In this document: piece by piece, positions 10,150 through 58,423 of the stretch
Position numbering within the stretch: the first letter of the stretch is position 1
How the letters are laid out: each line of letters begins with the position of its first letter
NCBI GenBank assembly: GCA_043812195.1
Contig: JBDRML010000029.1
Span: 32,001 to 96,000 of the forward strand
Direction of reading: 5' to 3'
From: Candidatus Woesearchaeota archaeon
Lineage (GTDB): Archaea > Nanobdellota > Nanobdellia > SCGC-AAA011-G17 > PNOQ01
DNA: 64,000 bases
Notes under the pieces: model-generated
Database searches by the model: none
Told to the model about the DNA's origin: nothing
The model's input: the letters and a program-made list of their open reading frames with translations, nothing else
Translations under genes and position numbers: made by a program

Positions 10150-10270
10150 CTCGCGGTAGCTCAATGGCAGAGTACTCGGCTGTAGATGCTATTCGACTAG
10201 GCGCTTAGCTTTGAATGAAAAATAGCCAGCCGATCCCGAGAGGTTGTGGGTTCAAATCCCACCCGCGAGA
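10150..10270 (+). tRNA. tRNA-Tyr(GTA) with ~49-nt intron at 37/38 (10186-10234)
   Basis: Acceptor CTCGCGG/CCGCGAG with C1-G72, anticodon GTA 10182-10184, T arm GTGGG-TTCAAAT-CCCAC; intron pairs GCTATT/AATAGC (relaxed BHB). Confidence 0.9.
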
Positions 10271-28262: not shown

Positions 28263-29195
28263 ATGAAACTTAAAACAAATCAAATCAAAATAATTTGTAA
28301 TAAACTTAAATGTGACTTAATTAGCGGGCGTTTGCTGGCTCGCGGAAGCCATAATGAAAGTTATTTAATTAAAACGAAAAAGAAGAATTACATACTTAAA
28401 GTAGAGAATAATCCAGGTTACGTTAAGAGAGAATACAAGATGCTTGCTGGTTTAAAAGAAGGTCTTGCTCCAAAAGTTTATTTCTTTGATTCTTCTAGGA
28501 AGATAATACCAAAGCCATATCTAATTGAAGAATTTTTAAAAGGAAAAAATCCACCAAAGAAAGCAAATAAAGGTTTTATAATTCAAATGGCGAAATGGTA
28601 TAAAAAGCTTCATTCAATCAAATCCTTAAAAATACCCAATGATGAGAAGAAAAGAATATATTCATTATTCTACTGGTTTGAATCAAATTATAAAAAATTT
28701 GAAAAAAATAAAACCATGTTGGATAAAAAATTAGGCAAAGAAATATCTGATAAATTTAAACGAGCTTTGGAAATTTGTAAACAAAATGATAAAATATTTT
28801 CAAACATAATTAATTTCTCATTAAATCACAATGATCCCTCTAAAGAAAATGTATTTATTAATAAAAAAAAGATTAGACTGATAGATTGGGAATTTTCTGG
28901 ATTTGGAATTCCAGAAAGAGATATTCTCACTTTTTTTAGGCAATATAAACTAAATAAGAATCAGAAGAATCTATTCCTTAAATCCTACAAATATCCAACC
29001 AAGAGCATTAAAAAGCTTAATGTGTTATTCTTAATACTATTAGCTTCAGATATTAATTATCTGATAAACCGCTTAAATTCTGTAAAAGAAGGAAAAATTA
29101 GTTCTAAACAGCAAAACACAAATGAAAGTTCCCTAAATAAAAGGATTTTGGAGATTTTTTGTATGTTTAAGATAGCTTTAAAAGAAATTGATTAG
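28263..29195 (+). CDS. Aminoglycoside phosphotransferase/choline kinase family protein
   Basis: GSHNESY, HNDPSKENV, IDWEFSG motifs. Confidence 0.8.
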   Translation: MKLKTNQIKIICNKLKCDLISGRLLARGSHNESYLIKTKKKNYILKVENNPGYVKREYKMLAGLKEGLAPKVYFFDSSRKIIPKPYLIEEFLKGKNPPKKANKGFIIQMAKWYKKLHSIKSLKIPNDEKKRIYSLFYWFESNYKKFEKNKTMLDKKLGKEISDKFKRALEICKQNDKIFSNIINFSLNHNDPSKENVFINKKKIRLIDWEFSGFGIPERDILTFFRQYKLNKNQKNLFLKSYKYPTKSIKKLNVLFLILLASDINYLINRLNSVKEGKISSKQQNTNESSLNKRILEIFCMFKIALKEID

Positions 29196-29324
29196 TGTTA
29201 TCAATAATCTTCGGAACTATTATCCAATTTTCTTATAATGCAAGTTTCCCCCTTTACATTACGCATTTAAATACAAAAAAATAAGCAAAAACTTTATAAA
29301 CAATTCCAATTCTCAAATTCTGTA

Positions 29325-32300
29325 ATGGCAGAAAAATCAGTAGAACAAATAAAAAAAGTAATGAATAACCCAAGCCATATAAGAAACATCGCTATCGCAG
29401 CCCATATCGATTTTTTTTGAGATAAATTCTCAAAAGACGAGTGCATGGGAAATGCATAGCACCAGATTCAAGGCTCATTCTAAGAGATGGAACTATGTTA
29501 ACTGCTAAAAAATTATTTAACTTAGCAGAGAAAAAAGGAACAAAATTTGAAGAAACGAAAGACCATATAATTTATGATACTAACTCATTAAATTTAGAAG
29601 CATTTTCCCTAAACAAAACTAATGGAAAATTAGAAAAAAAACCAATACAACTAGCCTGGAAATTAAAAGGTGGGGACTTAATAAATATTAAATTAAGAAA
29701 CAATTTCAACATTTCCACAACACCAGAACACAAATATTTAGTCTTAGAAAATTTAGAGTTTACAGAAAAAGAAGCTAAAGATATAAAATTAGGAGATAGA
29801 ATAATCTGCCCAAGAAAGCTTGAAACTAATTCAAATATTAACATAAAACGCACAATTCTACTAAAATTAGCTGAAAAAAGATTTTACGTTAAAGTAAACA
29901 AAATCTTAGGAGAAAAAATAAAAAAATTCGTTCTGAAAGAAAAAGAAACAATAAAAAAAATAAACAAAGAAATAAAGTATAAATCATTTTATCATGGTTC
30001 ATGGCAAAATAGATATTTATTAAAAGACTTAATAGAAATTTCAAGTTTAATAAATATAAACTTGGAGTATTTGTATAACAATATAGAAACAATAATTTAT
30101 AGAAGCGGAGCTCAAAGAGGAAAAAGCTCGCTGCCAACAAAATTACCACAAAACTTTCAAAACTTTTATTATCTAGCAGGATTGTTTGTAGGAGATGGAC
30201 ATCATAAAAAATTCATAGTCGGAAAAAATGAGTTAAAATCTAAATTTGTAGAAATTTGCAATGAATTAGGAATAAATGTAACATATAGAAATTATGAATA
30301 CAGAACAGAAGAAATAGTAACAAACGCTACCTTATTAGAAATATTAAACTCATTATTTGATTATCCAAAAGTCAAAAAAAGCCATAATGTAAAAATATCA
30401 GAATTTCTTCTACTATCTCCAAAAAAATATTCTTCAAAATTCTTAAGAGGATACTTCGATACTGATGGATGTGTAGAAAAAAGCAGAAGAGCAGTAACAA
30501 TATCGTCTGCCAGTGATAAAATGATAGCAGATTTAAGTATGTTTTTATTAAGATTCGGTTGCATACCAATCATAGAAAAAGACAACACAATAACAATTAG
30601 TGGACAATCCATGATAAATTTTATAGCAGAAATAGGATTTGAAATTAAAGCAAAAATAGCCAAAGCAAACTCCATAAAACAAACAATAATCGGAAGCATG
30701 GTTTCAGATGTTATACCAGTAACACATAGTAACGGAATGATTTCACTACAAAAAAACTTCACCAATTCAGAAAAATTAATTAATTTTTGTGAAAAAAATG
30801 ATATCAGCATAGAAAATATAAGTAAAATATTAAGTAAAGATATCTCATACATAGAAGTAAAAGCTATAGAAACAAAAAATGAAGAATTTGTATATGACTT
30901 CACAGTAAAAGACAACCATAACTTTGCTGCAGAAGGTATGATTATTCATAATACCACATTTTCAGACAATCTTTTAGCAGGTGCAGGCATGATTTCTAAA
31001 GAACTAGCAGGTAAACAATTAGCCTTAGATTTTCACGAAGATGAGGCAACAAGAGGTATTACAATAGATTCAGCTAGCGTATCTATGCTTCACACAGTAA
31101 AGGGAGAAGATTACTTAATCAATTTAATAGACACACCAGGTCACGTAGATTTTGGTGGAGATGTTACTAGGGCTATGAGAGCAGTTGACGGTGCAATTGT
31201 ATTAGTAGATGCAGTTGAAGGAATAATGCCTCAAACAGAAACAGTTCTAAAACAAGCTCTAAGAGAAATGGTAAAACCAGTTCTTTTCATAAATAAAGTT
31301 GACCGTTTAATCAAAGAAGTTAAACTAACACCACAAGCAATGCAAGAAAGATTCATTAAAATTATATCAGACGCTAATGGGTTCATTGAAACTTTTGCAC
31401 CAGACGAATTCAAAAAGAAATGGCAATCAAACGTACAAGACGGAAGCGTAGCTTTTGGTTCAGCATTTCATAATTGGGCATTAAGTTTCCCATACATGCA
31501 AGAAAAAGGAATAAGCTTCAAAGATATTATAGATGCTTATGAAAAAGAAGATTGGAAAATTTTAGCAAAGAAAGCACCATTACATGAGGTTGTTTTGGGT
31601 ATGATAATTAAACACCACGTAAATCCAATCACAGCACAAGCATACAGAATTCCAAAAATATGGAAAGGAGATTTAGATACAGAAATAGGAAAATCTTTAT
31701 TAAATTGTGATCCAAAAGGACCTGTAGCATTTATAGTAACAAAAATAGTAATAGATAAACATGCAGGAGAAGTATCTGCAGGAAGATTATTCTCAGGAAC
31801 ATTAAAACAAGGTGATGAAGTTTGGCTTAACATGGGTAAAAAGAAAGTTAGGTTACAACAGGTATCAATTTACAAAGGCGCACAAAGAACTGCTTTTAAT
31901 GAAATTCCAGCAGGAAACATAGCAGGTTTAGTAGGATTAAAAGATACATTCGCAGGTGAAACTATATCTTCAGAACCAATGGAACCTTTCGAAGCAATTA
32001 AACATATCTTTGAACCTGTAATCACAAAATCCATAGAAGCTAAAAAAGCATCAGACTTAGCAAAATTAATTGATGTTTTAAAACAAGTTGGAAAAGAAGA
32101 TCCAAGTATCAAAATAGAAATCAATGAAGAAACTGGAGAAAATTTGATGCATGGTATGGGAGAATTACATTTAGAGATTATAGAAAACAGAATTAAATCT
32201 GAAAAAGGTTTAGATGTAACAACTTCAGAACCAATCGTTGTTTACAGAGAAACAGTTTCAAAAGTAAGTGCAGAAAAAGAAGGTAAAAGTCCAAATAAGC

Positions 32301-33022
32301 ATAATAAATTCTATATGGTTGTAGAACCTCTAGAAGATAGTGTGTATGATGCAATAAAAGCAGGAGATTTACCAGAAGGTAGAATAAAGAAAAAAGATAC
32401 AGAAACTATTCAAAAATTAGTGAAATTAGGATATGATGCCAAAGAAGCTAAAAATGTAAGACAAATTTACAAAGGAAACATGCTAATTGACAACACAAGA
32501 GGTATTGTTCATATCGGAGAAGTTATAGAAATGATTATGGATGCTTATCAACAAGTTATAGACGCAGGTCCTATTTGTAGAGAACCTTGTGGAAAACTAA
32601 AAGTAAGAATTATGGATATGAGACTACACGAAGATGCAATTCATAGAGGTCCAGCACAAGTTTATCCTGCTATCAGAGAATCAATAAAAGAAGCAATGGC
32701 AGATGCTAAATCTCACTTACTAGAACCTATTCAAATTGTACAAATAGAAAGTCCAGCAGAATATTTAGGAGAACTATCAGCATTAGTTCAAAATAAAAGA
32801 GGACAACTATTAAATGTAGATCAAGAAGGTGAACACATTACTGTAAAAGCAAAATTACCAGTAGCAGAAATGTTCGGCCTAGCATCAGATTTAAGATCAA
32901 CAACATCCGGAAGAGGAGTATACTTCATAGTAGATCAAATGTATGAGAAATTACCAGAAACTCTACAAGAAAAAATCAGAAAACAAATAAGATCAAGAAA
33001 AGGTTTAAGTGAAAACGCTTAA
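29325..33022 (+). CDS. fusA: Elongation factor 2, join(29325..29411,29444..33022), with putative mRNA intron and an intein; ~721 aa after both are removed
   Basis: IRNIAIAAHID + HGK[intein]TTFSD, RGITI, DTPGHVDF, NKVD, GMGELHLE, diphthamide loop HEDAIHRG. Confidence 0.93.
29412..29443 (+). other. 32-nt BHB intron in EF-2 mRNA (putative)
   Basis: CCCAT-ATCG-AT^T-TTTTTTGAGA-TAAAT-TCTCAAAAGA-CGAG-TG^C-ATGGG; removal restores the AHIDHGK P-loop; insert contains in-frame TGA. Confidence 0.82.
29453..30952 (+). mobile_element. Intein (500 aa) with LAGLIDADG homing endonuclease, inserted in the EF-2 P-loop
   Basis: Starts CIAPDS, TTPEHKY block B, YLAGLFVGDG and FLRGYFDTDG, ends VYDFTV..HNF...IIHN followed by Thr. 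Confidence 0.95.
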
Positions 33023-33426
33023 TTTTCTTCTTTTTCTTCAGCAACTTTATTTTCTAAACCATTAGTTTTTTTATTATTCCAATGATTTGGTAAATTTGTA
33101 AATATATTACTATGGTCATCTTTATAATTCTTTAATGTAGCAAATGCACCAACACCAGCAATAGCTCCAAAAATCTCTGGTAAAAGAAGATTATATGCCT
33201 TATTTAACACAGGAATATTCCTTAATCCAGGCATTTGACTAAGAATCGCTAAACCAGCCCTAACACCAAGTATTATACCATCAAGCTCCAAAGCTTCATT
33301 TAAATTAGGATCAGCCCCCACAACAGCTCTTAAAAGCAAACTACTACCATAACCAGGCACAAATGCCCCAAAAAGAGTCATTGAACTATAACCTAAAACA
33401 GCCAATCCTTGTTTCACATATTTCAT
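33019..33426 (-). CDS. Hypothetical membrane protein
   Basis: 135 aa with hydrophobic Gly/Ala/Leu segments. Confidence 0.6.
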   Translation of the reverse strand: MKYVKQGLAVLGYSSMTLFGAFVPGYGSSLLLRAVVGADPNLNEALELDGIILGVRAGLAILSQMPGLRNIPVLNKAYNLLLPEIFGAIAGVGAFATLKNYKDDHSNIFTNLPNHWNNKKTNGLENKVAEEKEEN

Positions 33427-33541
33427 TTTAACTCGACTATGAGAATATACAAAATCTTATAAAGCATTCTAAAACACAAACAAAACATTTATAAACCCCC
33501 TAATTGTTCAAAATCTGTTATAATCAAGAGGAGGATTACAA

Positions 33542-34828
33542 ATGGCTAAAGAAAAACCACACATAAATATTGTATTTGTAGGTCACGTAGATCACGGTAA
33601 GTCTACTACAGTAGGTAGACTAATGTATGACTCTGGAAATCTACCAGAACAGGAACTTAGAAAATTAAAAGAGAAAGCTCAAGAGTTAGGAAAAGCAGGT
33701 TTCGAATTTGCTTTTGTTATGGATAACTTAAAAGAAGAAAGAGAAAGAGGAGTTACAATTGACTTATCTCACAAAAAATTCAATACTCAAAAATTTGAAT
33801 ACACAATTATAGATGCTCCTGGACACAGAGACTTTGTTAAGAACATGATTACTGGAGCAAGTCAAGCAGACGTAGCTTTCTTAGTTATTGCAGCTGGTGA
33901 GGGTATTATGGCCCAAACTAAAGAACACTTAATTCTTTGTAAAACAATGGGAATTAATCAAATCGCTATTGCAGTTAATAAGATGGATACTGTTAATTAT
34001 GCTGAAGATAAATTTAACGCTGTTAAAGTAGAAATCTCAAAGTTTTTAACACCTATGGGATATAATCCTGCTGAAACACCTTTCTTAGCAATTAGTGCTC
34101 TTAAAGGAGATAACATTGCTAAAAAATCTGAAAATATGTCTTGGTATAAAGGTCCAACAATACTTGAACAATTAGATTTATTCAAAGAACCTGAAAAACC
34201 AACAAATTTACCATTAAGACTACCTATTCAAGATGTTTATAACATCCCAGGTATTGGAACAGTACCAGTAGGAAAAGTAGAAACAGGTGTAATGAAAGTA
34301 GGACAAAAAGTAATTGTTATTCCTGCAAGAGAAGGTAAAGGTGTTACAGGCGAAGTTAAGACTATAGAAATGCATCATGAACAAATGCAAGAAGCTATAC
34401 CTGGAGACAACGTTGGTTTCAGTGTAAGAGGAATTGGTAAGAAAGACATTGCAAGAGGAGATGTTCTTGGAGATGTTAACAATCCACCTACACTAGTAAG
34501 TGAATTTACAGCACAGATATTTCTCATGGACCATCCAAGTGTTATGACAGTAGGATACACACCAGTATTTCACATACACACAGCACAGGTAGCATGTCAA
34601 ATAACTAAGTTAATAAAAAAGATTAACCCAGCAACAGGTGAAACAATAGAAGAAAATCCAGATATGTTAAAAAATGGAGAAGCAGCTATTGTTCAAGTTA
34701 AACCATCTAAACCTTTAGTAATTGAAAAGAAATCAGACATTCCACAAATGTCAAGATTTGCCATTAGGGATGCTGGATCAACAGTTGCAGCTGGAACCTG
34801 TATTGACTTAATAAAGAAGACACTTTAA
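33542..34828 (+). CDS. tuf: Elongation factor 1-alpha
   Basis: [29 protein letters not shown]; GAGGAGG RBS. Confidence 0.97.
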
Positions 34829-43471: not shown

Positions 43472-44179
43472 ATGAATCTATCAGAAAGAGGAAAAAGGAA
43501 TGTAAGAATAAGATGGAATAGAATACATCAAAAAGAGATTGATTATATAAGGAAAAATTTAGATAAAACTTTTAATTTTAAATCTAGGTTATGTGGTTAC
43601 TTAGCAGGAGATGGCAATATTCTTACTGCTAATAGCAAAACATGTACTCATTATACAATTCGTTTTTTCCCAGATCATTATTCACTAATTAAACCATTTA
43701 AAGAAGCGTTTATCAAAACATATAATAAAAATCCAAAAGTGAAAAAATTAAAAAACTATTATTTTATAACTATTGATTCCAAACCAATAGTATATGATCT
43801 CTTGTCACTAGTTGAATTTGGTACTTCAAATTGGAGTATTCCAAATAAAATTTTAACCAATGATAAAAATAAAATAGAATGGTTAAGAGCATTTTTTGAT
43901 GCTGAAGCACATATTCATGAAAAATATATTAGAATTCAATCAGTTAATGGAAAAGGATTAAAACAAGTAAAAGAATTATTAAACCAATTTTCTATTAATT
44001 CCAAAATTTATGAATACGTTCCAAAAAATAAAAAATGGAATAAGGTGTACATACTAAATATTTTAAGGAAAAAAGATAAAATAAATTATTTAAAATTAAT
44101 AGGATTTAATCACACCATAAAGCTTAAAAAGTTAAATAAAAATCTTGATTTTGCCTTAAATAAAGCCGCGGTCGCGTAA
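43472..44179 (+). CDS. Free-standing LAGLIDADG endonuclease-like protein; 3' end overlaps tRNA-Ser
   Basis: LCGYLAGDG and WLRAFFDAEA motifs; likely ATG 43472 after TATA; stop lies in the tRNA D-arm. Confidence 0.82.
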   Translation: MNLSERGKRNVRIRWNRIHQKEIDYIRKNLDKTFNFKSRLCGYLAGDGNILTANSKTCTHYTIRFFPDHYSLIKPFKEAFIKTYNKNPKVKKLKNYYFITIDSKPIVYDLLSLVEFGTSNWSIPNKILTNDKNKIEWLRAFFDAEAHIHEKYIRIQSVNGKGLKQVKELLNQFSINSKIYEYVPKNKKWNKVYILNILRKKDKINYLKLIGFNHTIKLKKLNKNLDFALNKAAVA

Positions 44180-44282
44180 TCTGGTATCGCACAGATCCTT
44201 AAAAGAAATAAAATTTTTATGGAGTGTAAGCCTGGAAAGCCTGACCCTTTTGGGTGTCTGGGTTCAAATCCCAGTCGCGGCG
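44165..44282 (+). tRNA. tRNA-Ser(GGA) with 35-nt intron at 29/30 (44195-44229)
   Basis: Acceptor GCCGCGG/TCGCGGC, joined stem CAGGC/GCCTG, long variable arm ACCC-TTTT-GGGT; BHB GCAC/GTGT with AGA and AAG bulges. Confidence 0.9.
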
Positions 44283-57086: not shown

Positions 57087-58223
57087 TTAAATATACTTAG
57101 ATTCCTTATAAATTTTTAAATGCCTGTTCATCTCTACATCAGAAGTTTTTTCTGGAAACATAATCTCAAATTTTTTTACTATTTCTTTTCTAAGTTTATA
57201 TGTATTAGCATGTTTCATATAAGCAAAAGAACCTTGTAAATTATCATAAATTTGGTTATAATCTATTCTATTACTTAAATGTAACAAATAAAGTTTATTC
57301 AGTTTATTATAGATATTTTTTCTATTAAACTTCTTTAATAATTTGTAATAATAAAAAACTCTAAAACCAACAAAATTGATTGGGTCATTTAAGGAAATTA
57401 TTTTAGATTTGTCAGGATGTAGCTCTATTTTCAATTCTTTTTTAAGAAAATTATCAATGTCTTCTTTCCATCTTATTAATTGTTGTTTAGAAGAATGCAA
57501 TATTACAAAATCATCAACATAACGAATATAGTATTTTGCTTTTAATTTATGCTTAACAAACTTGTCTAATTCGTTTAAATAAATATTTGCAAAAAATTGA
57601 GAAGTTAGATTACCCAATGGCATACCTTTGTTTTTATTAATCCGGTTCGCTTTCCCTTTATAATTGTCCAAAATCTTTTTGATAAGCCATATGGTTTTAG
57701 AACATTTAATTTTCTTCTTAATTATCTTCAATAAAATTTCTTGATCTATATCTTCAAAATAATGCTTTATATCTGCTTTTAAACAATAGCCTTTAACTTG
57801 GTTATTATTGTACCATCCATTAATTTTTCCATTCCTTGATACTTTTCTTTTAAACTGATCAAATCTTTCTAATGCTGCTATTGTTCCTTTGCCCTTTCTG
57901 TTGGCATAAGAATCAGAAATAAAAGTTCTATCAAAAATAGGTTCTATCACATTACATAAAGCATGATGAATTATTCTATCTCTAAAATCTGACTTGCTTA
58001 TTTTTCTTGTTTTAGGATCTCTTATTATAAAATTTTTCAATGGTTTTGGTTTGTAAGAATGCAGCAATAATTCAGTTCTTAATTCCAAAATATTTTCTTC
58101 TAAGTTTTTTTCAAATTTCTTTACATCACTTTTATTTGATTTGCCTTTTTTTGATTTTCTAAAAGCTAAATATAAATTCTCTTCTGAATTAATCTTTGAA
58201 TACTGATCACTATATGATTTCAT
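57087..58223 (-). CDS. DGR reverse transcriptase (378 aa from ATG 58223)
   Basis: FRDRIIHHAL, KADIKHYF, GMPLGNLTSQ, YIRYVDDF; adjacent TR/VR pairs. Confidence 0.93.
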   Translation of the reverse strand: MKSYSDQYSKINSEENLYLAFRKSKKGKSNKSDVKKFEKNLEENILELRTELLLHSYKPKPLKNFIIRDPKTRKISKSDFRDRIIHHALCNVIEPIFDRTFISDSYANRKGKGTIAALERFDQFKRKVSRNGKINGWYNNNQVKGYCLKADIKHYFEDIDQEILLKIIKKKIKCSKTIWLIKKILDNYKGKANRINKNKGMPLGNLTSQFFANIYLNELDKFVKHKLKAKYYIRYVDDFVILHSSKQQLIRWKEDIDNFLKKELKIELHPDKSKIISLNDPINFVGFRVFYYYKLLKKFNRKNIYNKLNKLYLLHLSNRIDYNQIYDNLQGSFAYMKHANTYKLRKEIVKKFEIMFPEKTSDVEMNRHLKIYKESKYI

Positions 58224-58230
58224 GAATATA

Positions 58231-58423
58231 CCTGGTAAAGGGTAATAAGCTATTCGACCATTCAAGTTAGAGTTGTCTAAGTTGTTCCAGTTGGAGTTAA
58301 GATTCAAGTTCCTGTTAAGGTTCAGCCTGGAAAGGCCACCACTTCATTATTCTCATGAGATACTAAATGTTGCAGTTGAATTTTATGTATCAACAGACTT
58401 GTAGCCTAGCCCTTAAGACCAGG
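58231..58423 (-). ncRNA. Putative DGR RNA: template repeat with complementary flanking arms
   Basis: 5' arm CCTGGT-CTT-AAGGG-C-TAGGCTA pairs with 3' arm TAGCTTA-TTA-CCCTT-T-ACCAGG. Confidence 0.6.
58255..58337 (-). repeat. DGR template repeat (TR)
   Basis: 83-bp core with 11 AAY codons; differs from both VRs only at TR adenines. Confidence 0.95.

Follow-up and report, generated by a model that had tools for sequence, protein, structure and literature searches.

A probable bulge-helix-bulge intron stacked against an intein in the P-loop codons of archaeal elongation factor 2

In a 64,000-nucleotide stretch of contig JBDRML010000029.1 (hereafter the window) from the groundwater organism Candidatus Woesearchaeota archaeon (assembly GCA_043812195.1, here G000), the gene for archaeal elongation factor 2 (aEF-2) is interrupted twice within the codons of its GTP-binding P-loop, by a 32-nt insert and by an intein. 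On the comparative evidence set out below, we consider it very probable that the insert at 29412-29443 is an archaeal bulge-helix-bulge (BHB) intron of the aEF-2 pre-mRNA, spliced by host enzymes, and that intron and intein are separate residents of one hot spot. A first-pass annotation had placed an intron and an intein 9 nt apart in a single P-loop at 29412-30952, and these coordinates are exact to the base. The genome comprises 938 kb in 45 contigs, is 90% complete and has a GC content of 29.5%. The aEF-2 gene extends on the plus strand from an ATG at 29325 to a stop codon at 33020-33022; a slash marks a splice point here and throughout.

29325..29411, plus strand: aEF-2 exon 1, 29 codons ending in the first half of the P-loop (AHID); from translation
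29401-29405 (CCCAT) and 29406-29409 (ATCG), plus strand: exon-1 bases of the predicted BHB motif, forming the outer helix and the exon strand of the central helix, respectively; from the fold
29412..29443, plus strand: predicted BHB intron, 32 nt; from the fold and from covariation over 18 unique homologous introns
29413-29437, plus strand: predicted 10-bp inner hairpin of the intron (5' arm 29413-29422, loop 29423-29427, 3' arm 29428-29437); from the fold
29438-29441 (CGAG), plus strand: predicted intron strand of the central helix; from the fold
29410-29412 and 29442-29444, plus strand: predicted 5' bulge (AU/U) and 3' bulge (UG/C); from the fold
29444..29452, plus strand: start of exon 2, His-Gly-Lys, the last three N-extein residues; from translation and the fold
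29445-29449 (ATGGG), plus strand: exon-2 bases predicted to pair with 29401-29405; from the fold
29453..30952, plus strand: intein of 500 residues with a LAGLIDADG homing-endonuclease domain, at the AHIDHGK/T site; from Pfam and NCBIfam
30953..33022, plus strand: aEF-2 C-extein, 689 codons plus the stop codon at 33020-33022, comprising the remaining GTPase domain and domains II-V; from Pfam and TIGR00490

The reading frame opened by the ATG at 29325 yields 29 residues, followed by two phenylalanines and a stop inside the insert, which carries an in-frame TGA at 29418-29420 and, at 32 nt, shifts the frame by 2. The frame from 29444 reads His-Gly-Lys and then enters the intein at its Cys codon at 29453. 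In relatives, the same exon-1 N-terminus continues straight into HGKTTFSD, and where neither intron nor intein is present the P-loop stretch is contiguous over 22 residues. The C-extein is covered over EFG domains II-V, with Pfam matches to GTP_EFTU, EFG_III, EFG_IV and EFG_C, and scores 1019.2 bits against the NCBIfam aEF-2 model TIGR00490 (cut-off 738.45) over profile positions 30-718. This match begins at profile position 30, right after the intein, and exon 1 provides the first 29 residues. A search of the genome with the C-extein found EF-2 to be single-copy; therefore the interrupted gene must be expressed. The layout of the gene bears out the earlier proposal that mature EF-2 should require RNA splicing first and protein splicing second.

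Folded as RNA, the 72 nt at 29391-29462 reach -25.2 kcal/mol (z = -5.43), a stability matched by none of 200 shuffles. The predicted structure has both flanking helices of a BHB motif: an outer helix of 5 bp made from exon bases (CCCAU with AUGGG), and an inner helix that is the 10-bp intron hairpin. Between the bulges, exon AUCG faces intron CGAG in an A.G, U-A, C-G, G-C arrangement, that is, three standard pairs and one mismatch, and under our pairing rules the insert scores 3 of 4 for the central helix, 5 for the outer helix and at least 6 for the inner helix. The BHB splicing endonuclease cuts after the second base of a bulge. Applying this rule in silico to each 3-nt bulge gives the junction GAT/CAT, which reads AHIDHGK in frame. 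The cut sites defined by structure coincide exactly with the ones needed to regain both the reading frame and the P-loop, which counts in favor of a BHB intron. As a positive control, the same rule removes 49 nt (10186-10234) from the tRNA-Tyr(GTA) gene of the window, giving a product that ARAGORN accepts as a tRNA; the intron mode of ARAGORN sets the identical 49-nt intron.

Homologous introns occur in relatives at the same position, 9 nt upstream of the intein site (position -9), and their variation follows the predicted pairing. Over 18 unique -9 introns, 223 of the 252 pair cells hold a standard pair. When partners are shuffled among these introns the mean is 177 and the maximum 192, with none of 1000 shuffles reaching 223, and when the 3' partner is slid by 1-3 nt the count falls to 72-104. 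Positions 2-4 of the central helix are paired in all 18. One of these pairs joins the third base of the exon Ile codon to an intron base, as C-G in 11 introns and U-A in 7, and the five scored positions of the inner helix use three to four pair types apiece. The exon halves of the motif also depart from usual codon choice: GCC, ATC and GGG, all of which supply paired exon bases, account for 5.3%, 8.2% and 9.7% of their own codon families in G000. CCCAT and ATGGG occur jointly in 11 of 19 -9 alleles versus 1 of 54 intron-less alleles that share one 11-residue P-loop type (Fisher 2e-7, a test in which relatives are not independent observations). This covariation indicates that the BHB structure is under selection. 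With the fold and the restored frame, it upholds the first-pass suggestion of an intron and identifies it, at the level of sequence, as one of the BHB kind.

The insert is genuine DNA and no slip of assembly. Contigs from three groundwater DNA runs, belonging to three studies, cover 29326-29846, 29331-29523 and 29326-29782 with zero indels; one of the three runs may be the source sample. A pattern scan of metagenomes recovered a single contig (L144), with the same allele: it has the identical 32-nt intron and the intein, a different upstream region and a TTG start. In runs X1 and X3, as in contig L144, the gene agrees from 29326 onward but the upstream sequence differs and the start is TTG, which places a strain break exactly at the EF-2 start codon.

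To see how widely such inserts occur, we rely on a query from the EF-2 C-extein, which found one gene in 40 of 41 close relatives at 60-80% identity and had hits in 221 of the 240 genomes of its order within the phylum Nanobdellota, and on a second query from a more distant EF-2 type, which had hits in 222 of the 240. P-loops were read directly in 114 genomes, comprising all 30 close-relative loci, the listed alleles with an open frame below 721 or above about 750 residues, and some ordinary checks. Among these, 32 genomes carry 33 BHB inserts of 30-39 nt, and their removal restores an AHIDHGK(T or C) stretch each time. The introns of relatives are 29-39 nt long and occupy five or six positions, the nearest 1 nt and the farthest 15 nt upstream of the intein site.

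Position -15, between His and Ile: 2 introns
Position -13, inside the Ile codon: 7 introns
Position -9, between Asp and His, as in G000: 16 introns
Position -3 or -2, uncertain: 1 intron
Position -2, inside the Lys codon: 6 introns
Position -1: 1 intron

One genome, G168 (locus L046), carries two 31-nt BHB introns at -13 and -2, separated by 11 coding nt and scoring (4,1,10) and (3,2,10) for the central, outer and inner helix. In a wider sample of 401 genomes of the phylum (71 in the order and 330 in other orders of the same class), the -9 pattern gave 14 hits versus 4 for the reversed pattern; ten of the 14 are EF-2 introns and four are spurious. Three of the EF-2 introns lie outside the order, in G487 and in the unpublished genomes G533 and G440, bringing the genomes with EF-2 mini-introns to 35 (32 in the order plus 3 in other orders). 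Elsewhere in EF-2, the roughly 150 full-length alignments listed for each search showed neither a frame break nor an internal stop that would point to an intron. Six partial EF-2 hits starting at C-extein residues 30-70 were considered as additional intron sites and rejected: three are at contig ends, and three coincide with runs of N or belong to intein-bearing genes.

Occupancy changes over short evolutionary distances. In genus g19 the states are -2, -2, -13 and one intein, and in genus g90 two genomes have none and two have introns, at -2 and at -9. In family f13 all eight genomes with an EF-2 hit are occupied, seven by an intron (at four positions) and one by an intein, leaving no plain allele. 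The intron closest to that of G000 is in G199, a member of another family without an intein, at 84% identity; the next best is at 64%. Exon 1 of G000 is 73% identical in nucleotides to that of G199 and 72-73% identical to those of its own family members, values that do not distinguish whether the intron arrived with flanking DNA. Of the 33 unique introns, 7 at positions -15, -13 and -9 have one apical loop motif in common, against a mean of 0.16 and a highest value of 3 over 2000 shuffles; for a motif chosen post hoc, this hints that introns at different positions are related. EF-2 genes of the AHIHHGKTA(L/M/F)TDNLL type, found in several families, have an intein in 23 of the 28 alleles read and an intron in none. 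One further locus, L027 in G037 (a 74%-complete metagenome-assembled genome, MAG), encodes an EF-2 that lacks the xAH codons and is frame-shifted (RNIAI..IDHGK), resembling a 10-nt deletion at the intron hot spot; this could be an assembly artefact or imprecise intron loss.

The enzymes expected to act on such an intron are encoded in G000. There is one gene for the splicing endonuclease EndA, of 181 residues, matching TIGR00324 at 105 bits (cut-off 59.6) and holding both the N-terminal and the catalytic domain (PF02778 and PF01974), and the ligase RtcB is present (E 1.2e-144). In the pathway that we propose, the transcript would fold with CCCAU and AUGGG as outer helix, AUCG and CGAG as a central helix of four positions, and the 10-bp inner hairpin. 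The single-unit EndA would cut after the second base of each 3-nt bulge, and RtcB would join the exons to GAU/CAU, reading AHID-HGK. The spliced mRNA would encode a precursor of 1221 residues (29 + 3 + 500 + 689), from which self-excision of the intein would leave a 721-residue EF-2 with an intact P-loop; unspliced RNA would give only a 31-residue peptide. That the RNA is cut and ligated in the cell, that the protein splices and that the endonuclease is active are inferences from these sequence features.

Several points weigh against this interpretation. Position 1 of the central helix is an A.G mismatch both in G000 and in 10 of the 18 homologues, and the introns at -15, -13 and -2 in relatives have a weak outer helix of 0-2 bp. 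Among the deletions that restore the P-loop, the one scoring highest as a BHB motif was taken as the splice position in each relative, a choice that leans the pair counts slightly toward structure; most -9 alleles had no alternative deletion to choose from. The unpublished G533 and G440 supply 2 of the 18 covariation sequences and 2 of the 19 alleles in the codon count. As to the survey, 72 further alleles are classed by open-frame length only (720-760 residues taken as plain), and about 30 partial or unlisted EF-2 hits lie outside it. Single-unit EndA has been described as strict, and single-unit EndAs with an extra loop are reported in DPANN archaea alongside disrupted tRNA genes (in the available portions of PMC5829648); a second EndA subunit could have been missed because the genome is 90% complete. 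Finally, no RNA run is listed for 29000-34000, and one metatranscriptome from a DNA-bearing study gave no match, a result that is uninformative either way.

The second element has the sequence hallmarks of an intein. It begins with Cys1 (CIAPD...), contains the block B motif TTPEH, and ends in His-Asn (...IIHN/T) followed by Thr+1. Pfam identifies Intein_splicing (PF14890, E 5.8e-28) and LAGLIDADG_3 (PF14528, E 9.8e-15), TIGR01445 matches as well, and the two LAGLIDADG motifs, YLAGLFVGDGH and FLRGYFDTDGC, carry acidic residues. Thus translation, Pfam and NCBIfam agree with the first reading of a 500-residue intein with both LAGLIDADG motifs, starting three codons (HGK) after the intron. The aIF-2/IF5B intein model NF011418 matches intein residues 1-443 (E 3.2e-56), the nearest solved chain is PI-PkoII (2cw7, E 8.6e-11), and these matches place the intein among the ordinary P-loop inteins, as a relative of that model and of PI-PkoII. 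With the intein as a single protein query, the search returned one locus, in a MAG labelled Nanoarchaeota.

Inteins at GK/T are present in 41 of the 114 genomes, and two further intein-bearing EF-2 genes were seen outside the P-loops read; of 40 that were extracted, 27 are large (468-522 residues) and 13 are mini-inteins (183-213 residues). In the 73 of the 114 genomes that lack an intein the site is unbroken, although in 25 of these the intron has to be removed first. In a tree of the 40 inteins, that of G000 is nearest to those of G176, G067 and G196, all three of which lack an intron. G000 itself is rich in inteins, with 23 intein-domain hits in about nine host open reading frames (ORFs; contigs C1, C2, C3, C4, C21, C31 and C41). 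Several of the others directly follow the GK of a P-loop (GTGK/C, GVGK/C, GSGK/C), and some ORFs contain two inteins. Twelve other hits in G000 were inspected, several being two parts of one intein or belonging to the same host ORF: upstream of 11 the sequence is uninterrupted for at least 79 residues, and the remaining one is at a contig end, with no adjacent intron among them. At locus L142 (G110), a large EF-2 intein has an apparently degenerate or frame-shifted C-terminal block (...DNNNLIRVWLLG...), and is maybe a decaying intein or a sequencing error.

Cross-tabulating the two elements over the 114 P-loops gives the following counts.

Intron and intein: 7 genomes
Intron only: 25 genomes
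Intein only: 34 genomes
Neither: 48 genomes

When the 72 alleles of plain length are added the odds ratio is 0.99 (p = 1). Within alleles of the 11-residue P-loop type mentioned above (7, 25, 11 and 97) it is 2.5 (p = 0.13), or 1.8 if a clade of three is counted once. Each element mostly occurs without the other; intron and intein are separate residents of one hot spot and do not form an obligate pair. For the first-pass annotation, this tabulation means that independent assortment, which would speak against linkage, largely holds, while local linkage in genus g21 is still possible: two species there have an intron together with a mini-intein, two have neither, and G164, a third f15 genome, has the same pair.

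A less probable account is that the intron persists as an anti-homing block, which breaks the DNA site of the intein endonuclease so that intron-bearing, intein-free alleles resist invasion, the intein of G000 having entered anyway or having been there first. We regard this as possible but doubtful. It is favored by the confinement of all 33 introns of the order to the 15 nt upstream of the intein site, with no break elsewhere in the listed full-length alignments, by the fully occupied family f13, and by the varying states inside g19, g90 and g21, which imply fast turnover. In addition, none of the eight introns at -1 to -3 co-occurs with an intein, a count too small for weight and one fairly often expected by chance at an intein frequency near 11-20%. 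However, the association is not negative, either overall or within the single P-loop type, and seven alleles carry both elements. The AHIHHGK clade, the richest in inteins, has no introns at all, and the 12 other intein-domain hits of G000 lack an adjacent intron. In a broader form, which we hold as tentatively as the block itself, EF-2 mini-introns would be a mobile, host-spliced family that interacts with the homing intein, its members being acquired or shifted at the endonuclease target as resistance alleles or as spliceable repair products. Such mobility would explain why the positions are piled within 15 nt, why states flip within genera and why an apical loop motif is shared.

It is improbable that homing of the intein carries the intron along through co-conversion of the adjoining DNA, as the first-pass annotation had offered as one explanation. 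At a spacing of 9 nt a conversion tract over one element likely spans the other, and both the g21 pattern (with the same pair in G164) and the odds ratio within the single P-loop type point in this direction. As a general rule the idea fails, because the overall odds ratio shows no association, the intron label changes at least five times on the intein tree, at least three of these changes being forced by strongly supported branches, and the intron closest to that of G000 sits in the intein-free G199. Introns without an intein number 25 in the order and 3 outside it, as against 34 inteins without an intron; the intein of G006 groups, at 97% support, with those of three alleles that have no intron and belong to three other families; and the three f15 cases are mini-inteins that lack the endonuclease domain.

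Slightly less probable again is a regulatory role, in which splicing by the tRNA-processing enzymes would gate EF-2 synthesis and couple factor supply to RNA-processing capacity. The HAC1/XBP1 mRNA, which is spliced by a non-spliceosomal route, offers a comparison. The 31-residue peptide expected from unspliced mRNA, the location of the intron after the first 87 nt of the ORF in an essential gene present as one copy and the selection on its structure are in keeping with such a gate, but about 83% of alleles in the order have no intron, and the variation of position and sequence among close relatives is more in line with a selfish or neutral element than with a conserved means of control. Least probable of all, and very much so, is that the insert is not an intron but reflects misassembly, a lesion in a pseudogene, programmed frameshifting or ribosomal bypass, or the boundary of a split gene starting at the GTG at 29441, where the ORF finder begins the long ORF: three runs and contig L144 contain the same DNA, inserts of this kind occur in 35 genomes and show exon-intron covariation, EF-2 is single-copy, and bypass, frameshift and split gene were rejected since lengths of 29-39 nt at five or six positions misfit a single signal for frameshifting or hopping, a pair of take-off and landing codons is absent (GAT stands at the 5' edge, and introns end in GTG, TTT, TTA and others), a product from 29441 would lose the AHID of the P-loop, and most homologous introns end in no start codon.

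A BHB intron spliced by the host has its closest precedent in the cbf5 pre-mRNA of Crenarchaeota (Watanabe 2002; Yoshinari 2006; Yokobori 2009, PMC2738675). As far as the available text of these sources goes, both are short, protein-free introns defined by a BHB motif in an archaeal coding sequence, patchily gained and lost, and removed by the tRNA splicing endonuclease and ligase, excision being a prediction for EF-2. With introns of 29-39 nt, there is no room for an endonuclease ORF inside the EF-2 introns, which sets them apart from mobile introns of the archaeal rRNA or group I type that encode a homing endonuclease themselves. Unlike the cbf5 intron, that of EF-2 lies in an essential GTPase, inside the P-loop codons, with five or six insertion positions in 15 nt, one two-intron allele and an intein 9 nt away. 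Its lineage, Nanobdellota (DPANN), also differs, the only EndA gene found being of the single-unit kind, whereas the cbf5 work, in the parts available to us, tied pre-mRNA splicing to hetero-oligomeric EndA (Yoshinari 2006).

Compared with the BHB introns of tRNA and rRNA, the architecture is the same, with two 3-nt bulges, a helix of four positions between them and cuts after the second bulge base, as the tRNA-Tyr of the window also obeys; but in EF-2 the exon halves of the motif are codons, with synonymous sites building the helices, and there is no tRNA body for recognition. The intein resembles the P-loop inteins of archaeal GTPases and ATPases (NF011418, PI-PkoII), with Hint and LAGLIDADG domains placed right after the Lys of GK/T or GK/S, and differs from the others in that its host is aEF-2 and that it co-resides with an RNA intron. 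An EF-2 intein of Methanopyrus is reportedly listed in InBase; our literature search found nothing on it. In the collaborative homing of phages, a group I intron beside an endonuclease target makes the allele immune while a free-standing endonuclease mobilises the region. Unlike that system, with its self-splicing intron and free-standing enzyme, the present one has a 32-nt intron probably spliced by the host, an enzyme borne by the intein, and no linkage found between the two.

In the accessible text of the literature to 2025, cbf5 is the only archaeal pre-mRNA BHB intron cited (PMC6379350, PMC5829648, PMC12397907, PMC2738675). Our literature search found no paper on BHB introns in EF-2 or in any protein gene from DPANN archaea or Nanobdellota, and the main text of a 2026 Nanobdellota preprint has the word "intron" once, about tRNA, and "intein" never. 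The mechanism is known; what is new is the host gene, the lineage, the context of a single-unit EndA, the hot spot with its several positions and the closely adjoining intein.

Host-spliced introns in archaeal protein-coding sequences had, as far as the sources in hand go, rested on the single textbook case of cbf5. The EF-2 case would add an essential, single-copy translation GTPase interrupted in its catalytic loop, with covariation support and in 35 genomes, and suggests that synonymous codons can be enlisted for an RNA-processing signal. In practical terms, genome annotation will miscall such EF-2 genes as broken or N-terminally truncated, and marker-gene sets are affected. Alleles polymorphic for intron presence, intron position and intein presence provide a natural test bed for the origin and movement of BHB introns and for their interaction with endonucleases.

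A genome-wide BHB scan of G000 with an ORF-merging filter gave 725 candidates, versus 622 in a control shifted by 500 nt. Of the 38 short, high-scoring candidates, the EF-2 intron alone joins a recognisable protein, and the scan is uninformative on other mRNA introns.

Among the other features of the window, the EF-1alpha gene (33542-34828, plus strand) lies directly downstream of EF-2, past a small opposite-strand gene, and has an uninterrupted P-loop. The tRNA-Tyr(GTA) gene at 10150-10270 (plus strand), whose 49-nt intron (10186-10234) is a canonical 37/38 BHB intron, was found by Rfam and by the intron mode of ARAGORN. In its default mode ARAGORN found no tRNA in the window, and Rfam found two. 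The second Rfam match, at 44165-44282 (plus strand, 34.7 bits, about 118 nt), could not be resolved into one clean structure by simple BHB scoring and probably holds one or more non-canonical introns. A reverse-transcriptase gene at 57087-58423 (minus strand; 406 residues, RVT_1 E 1.4e-24) is located directly downstream of an Rfam RT-16 motif (58317-58423, 51.3 bits), and a resident reverse transcriptase could be relevant to cDNA-mediated intron loss.

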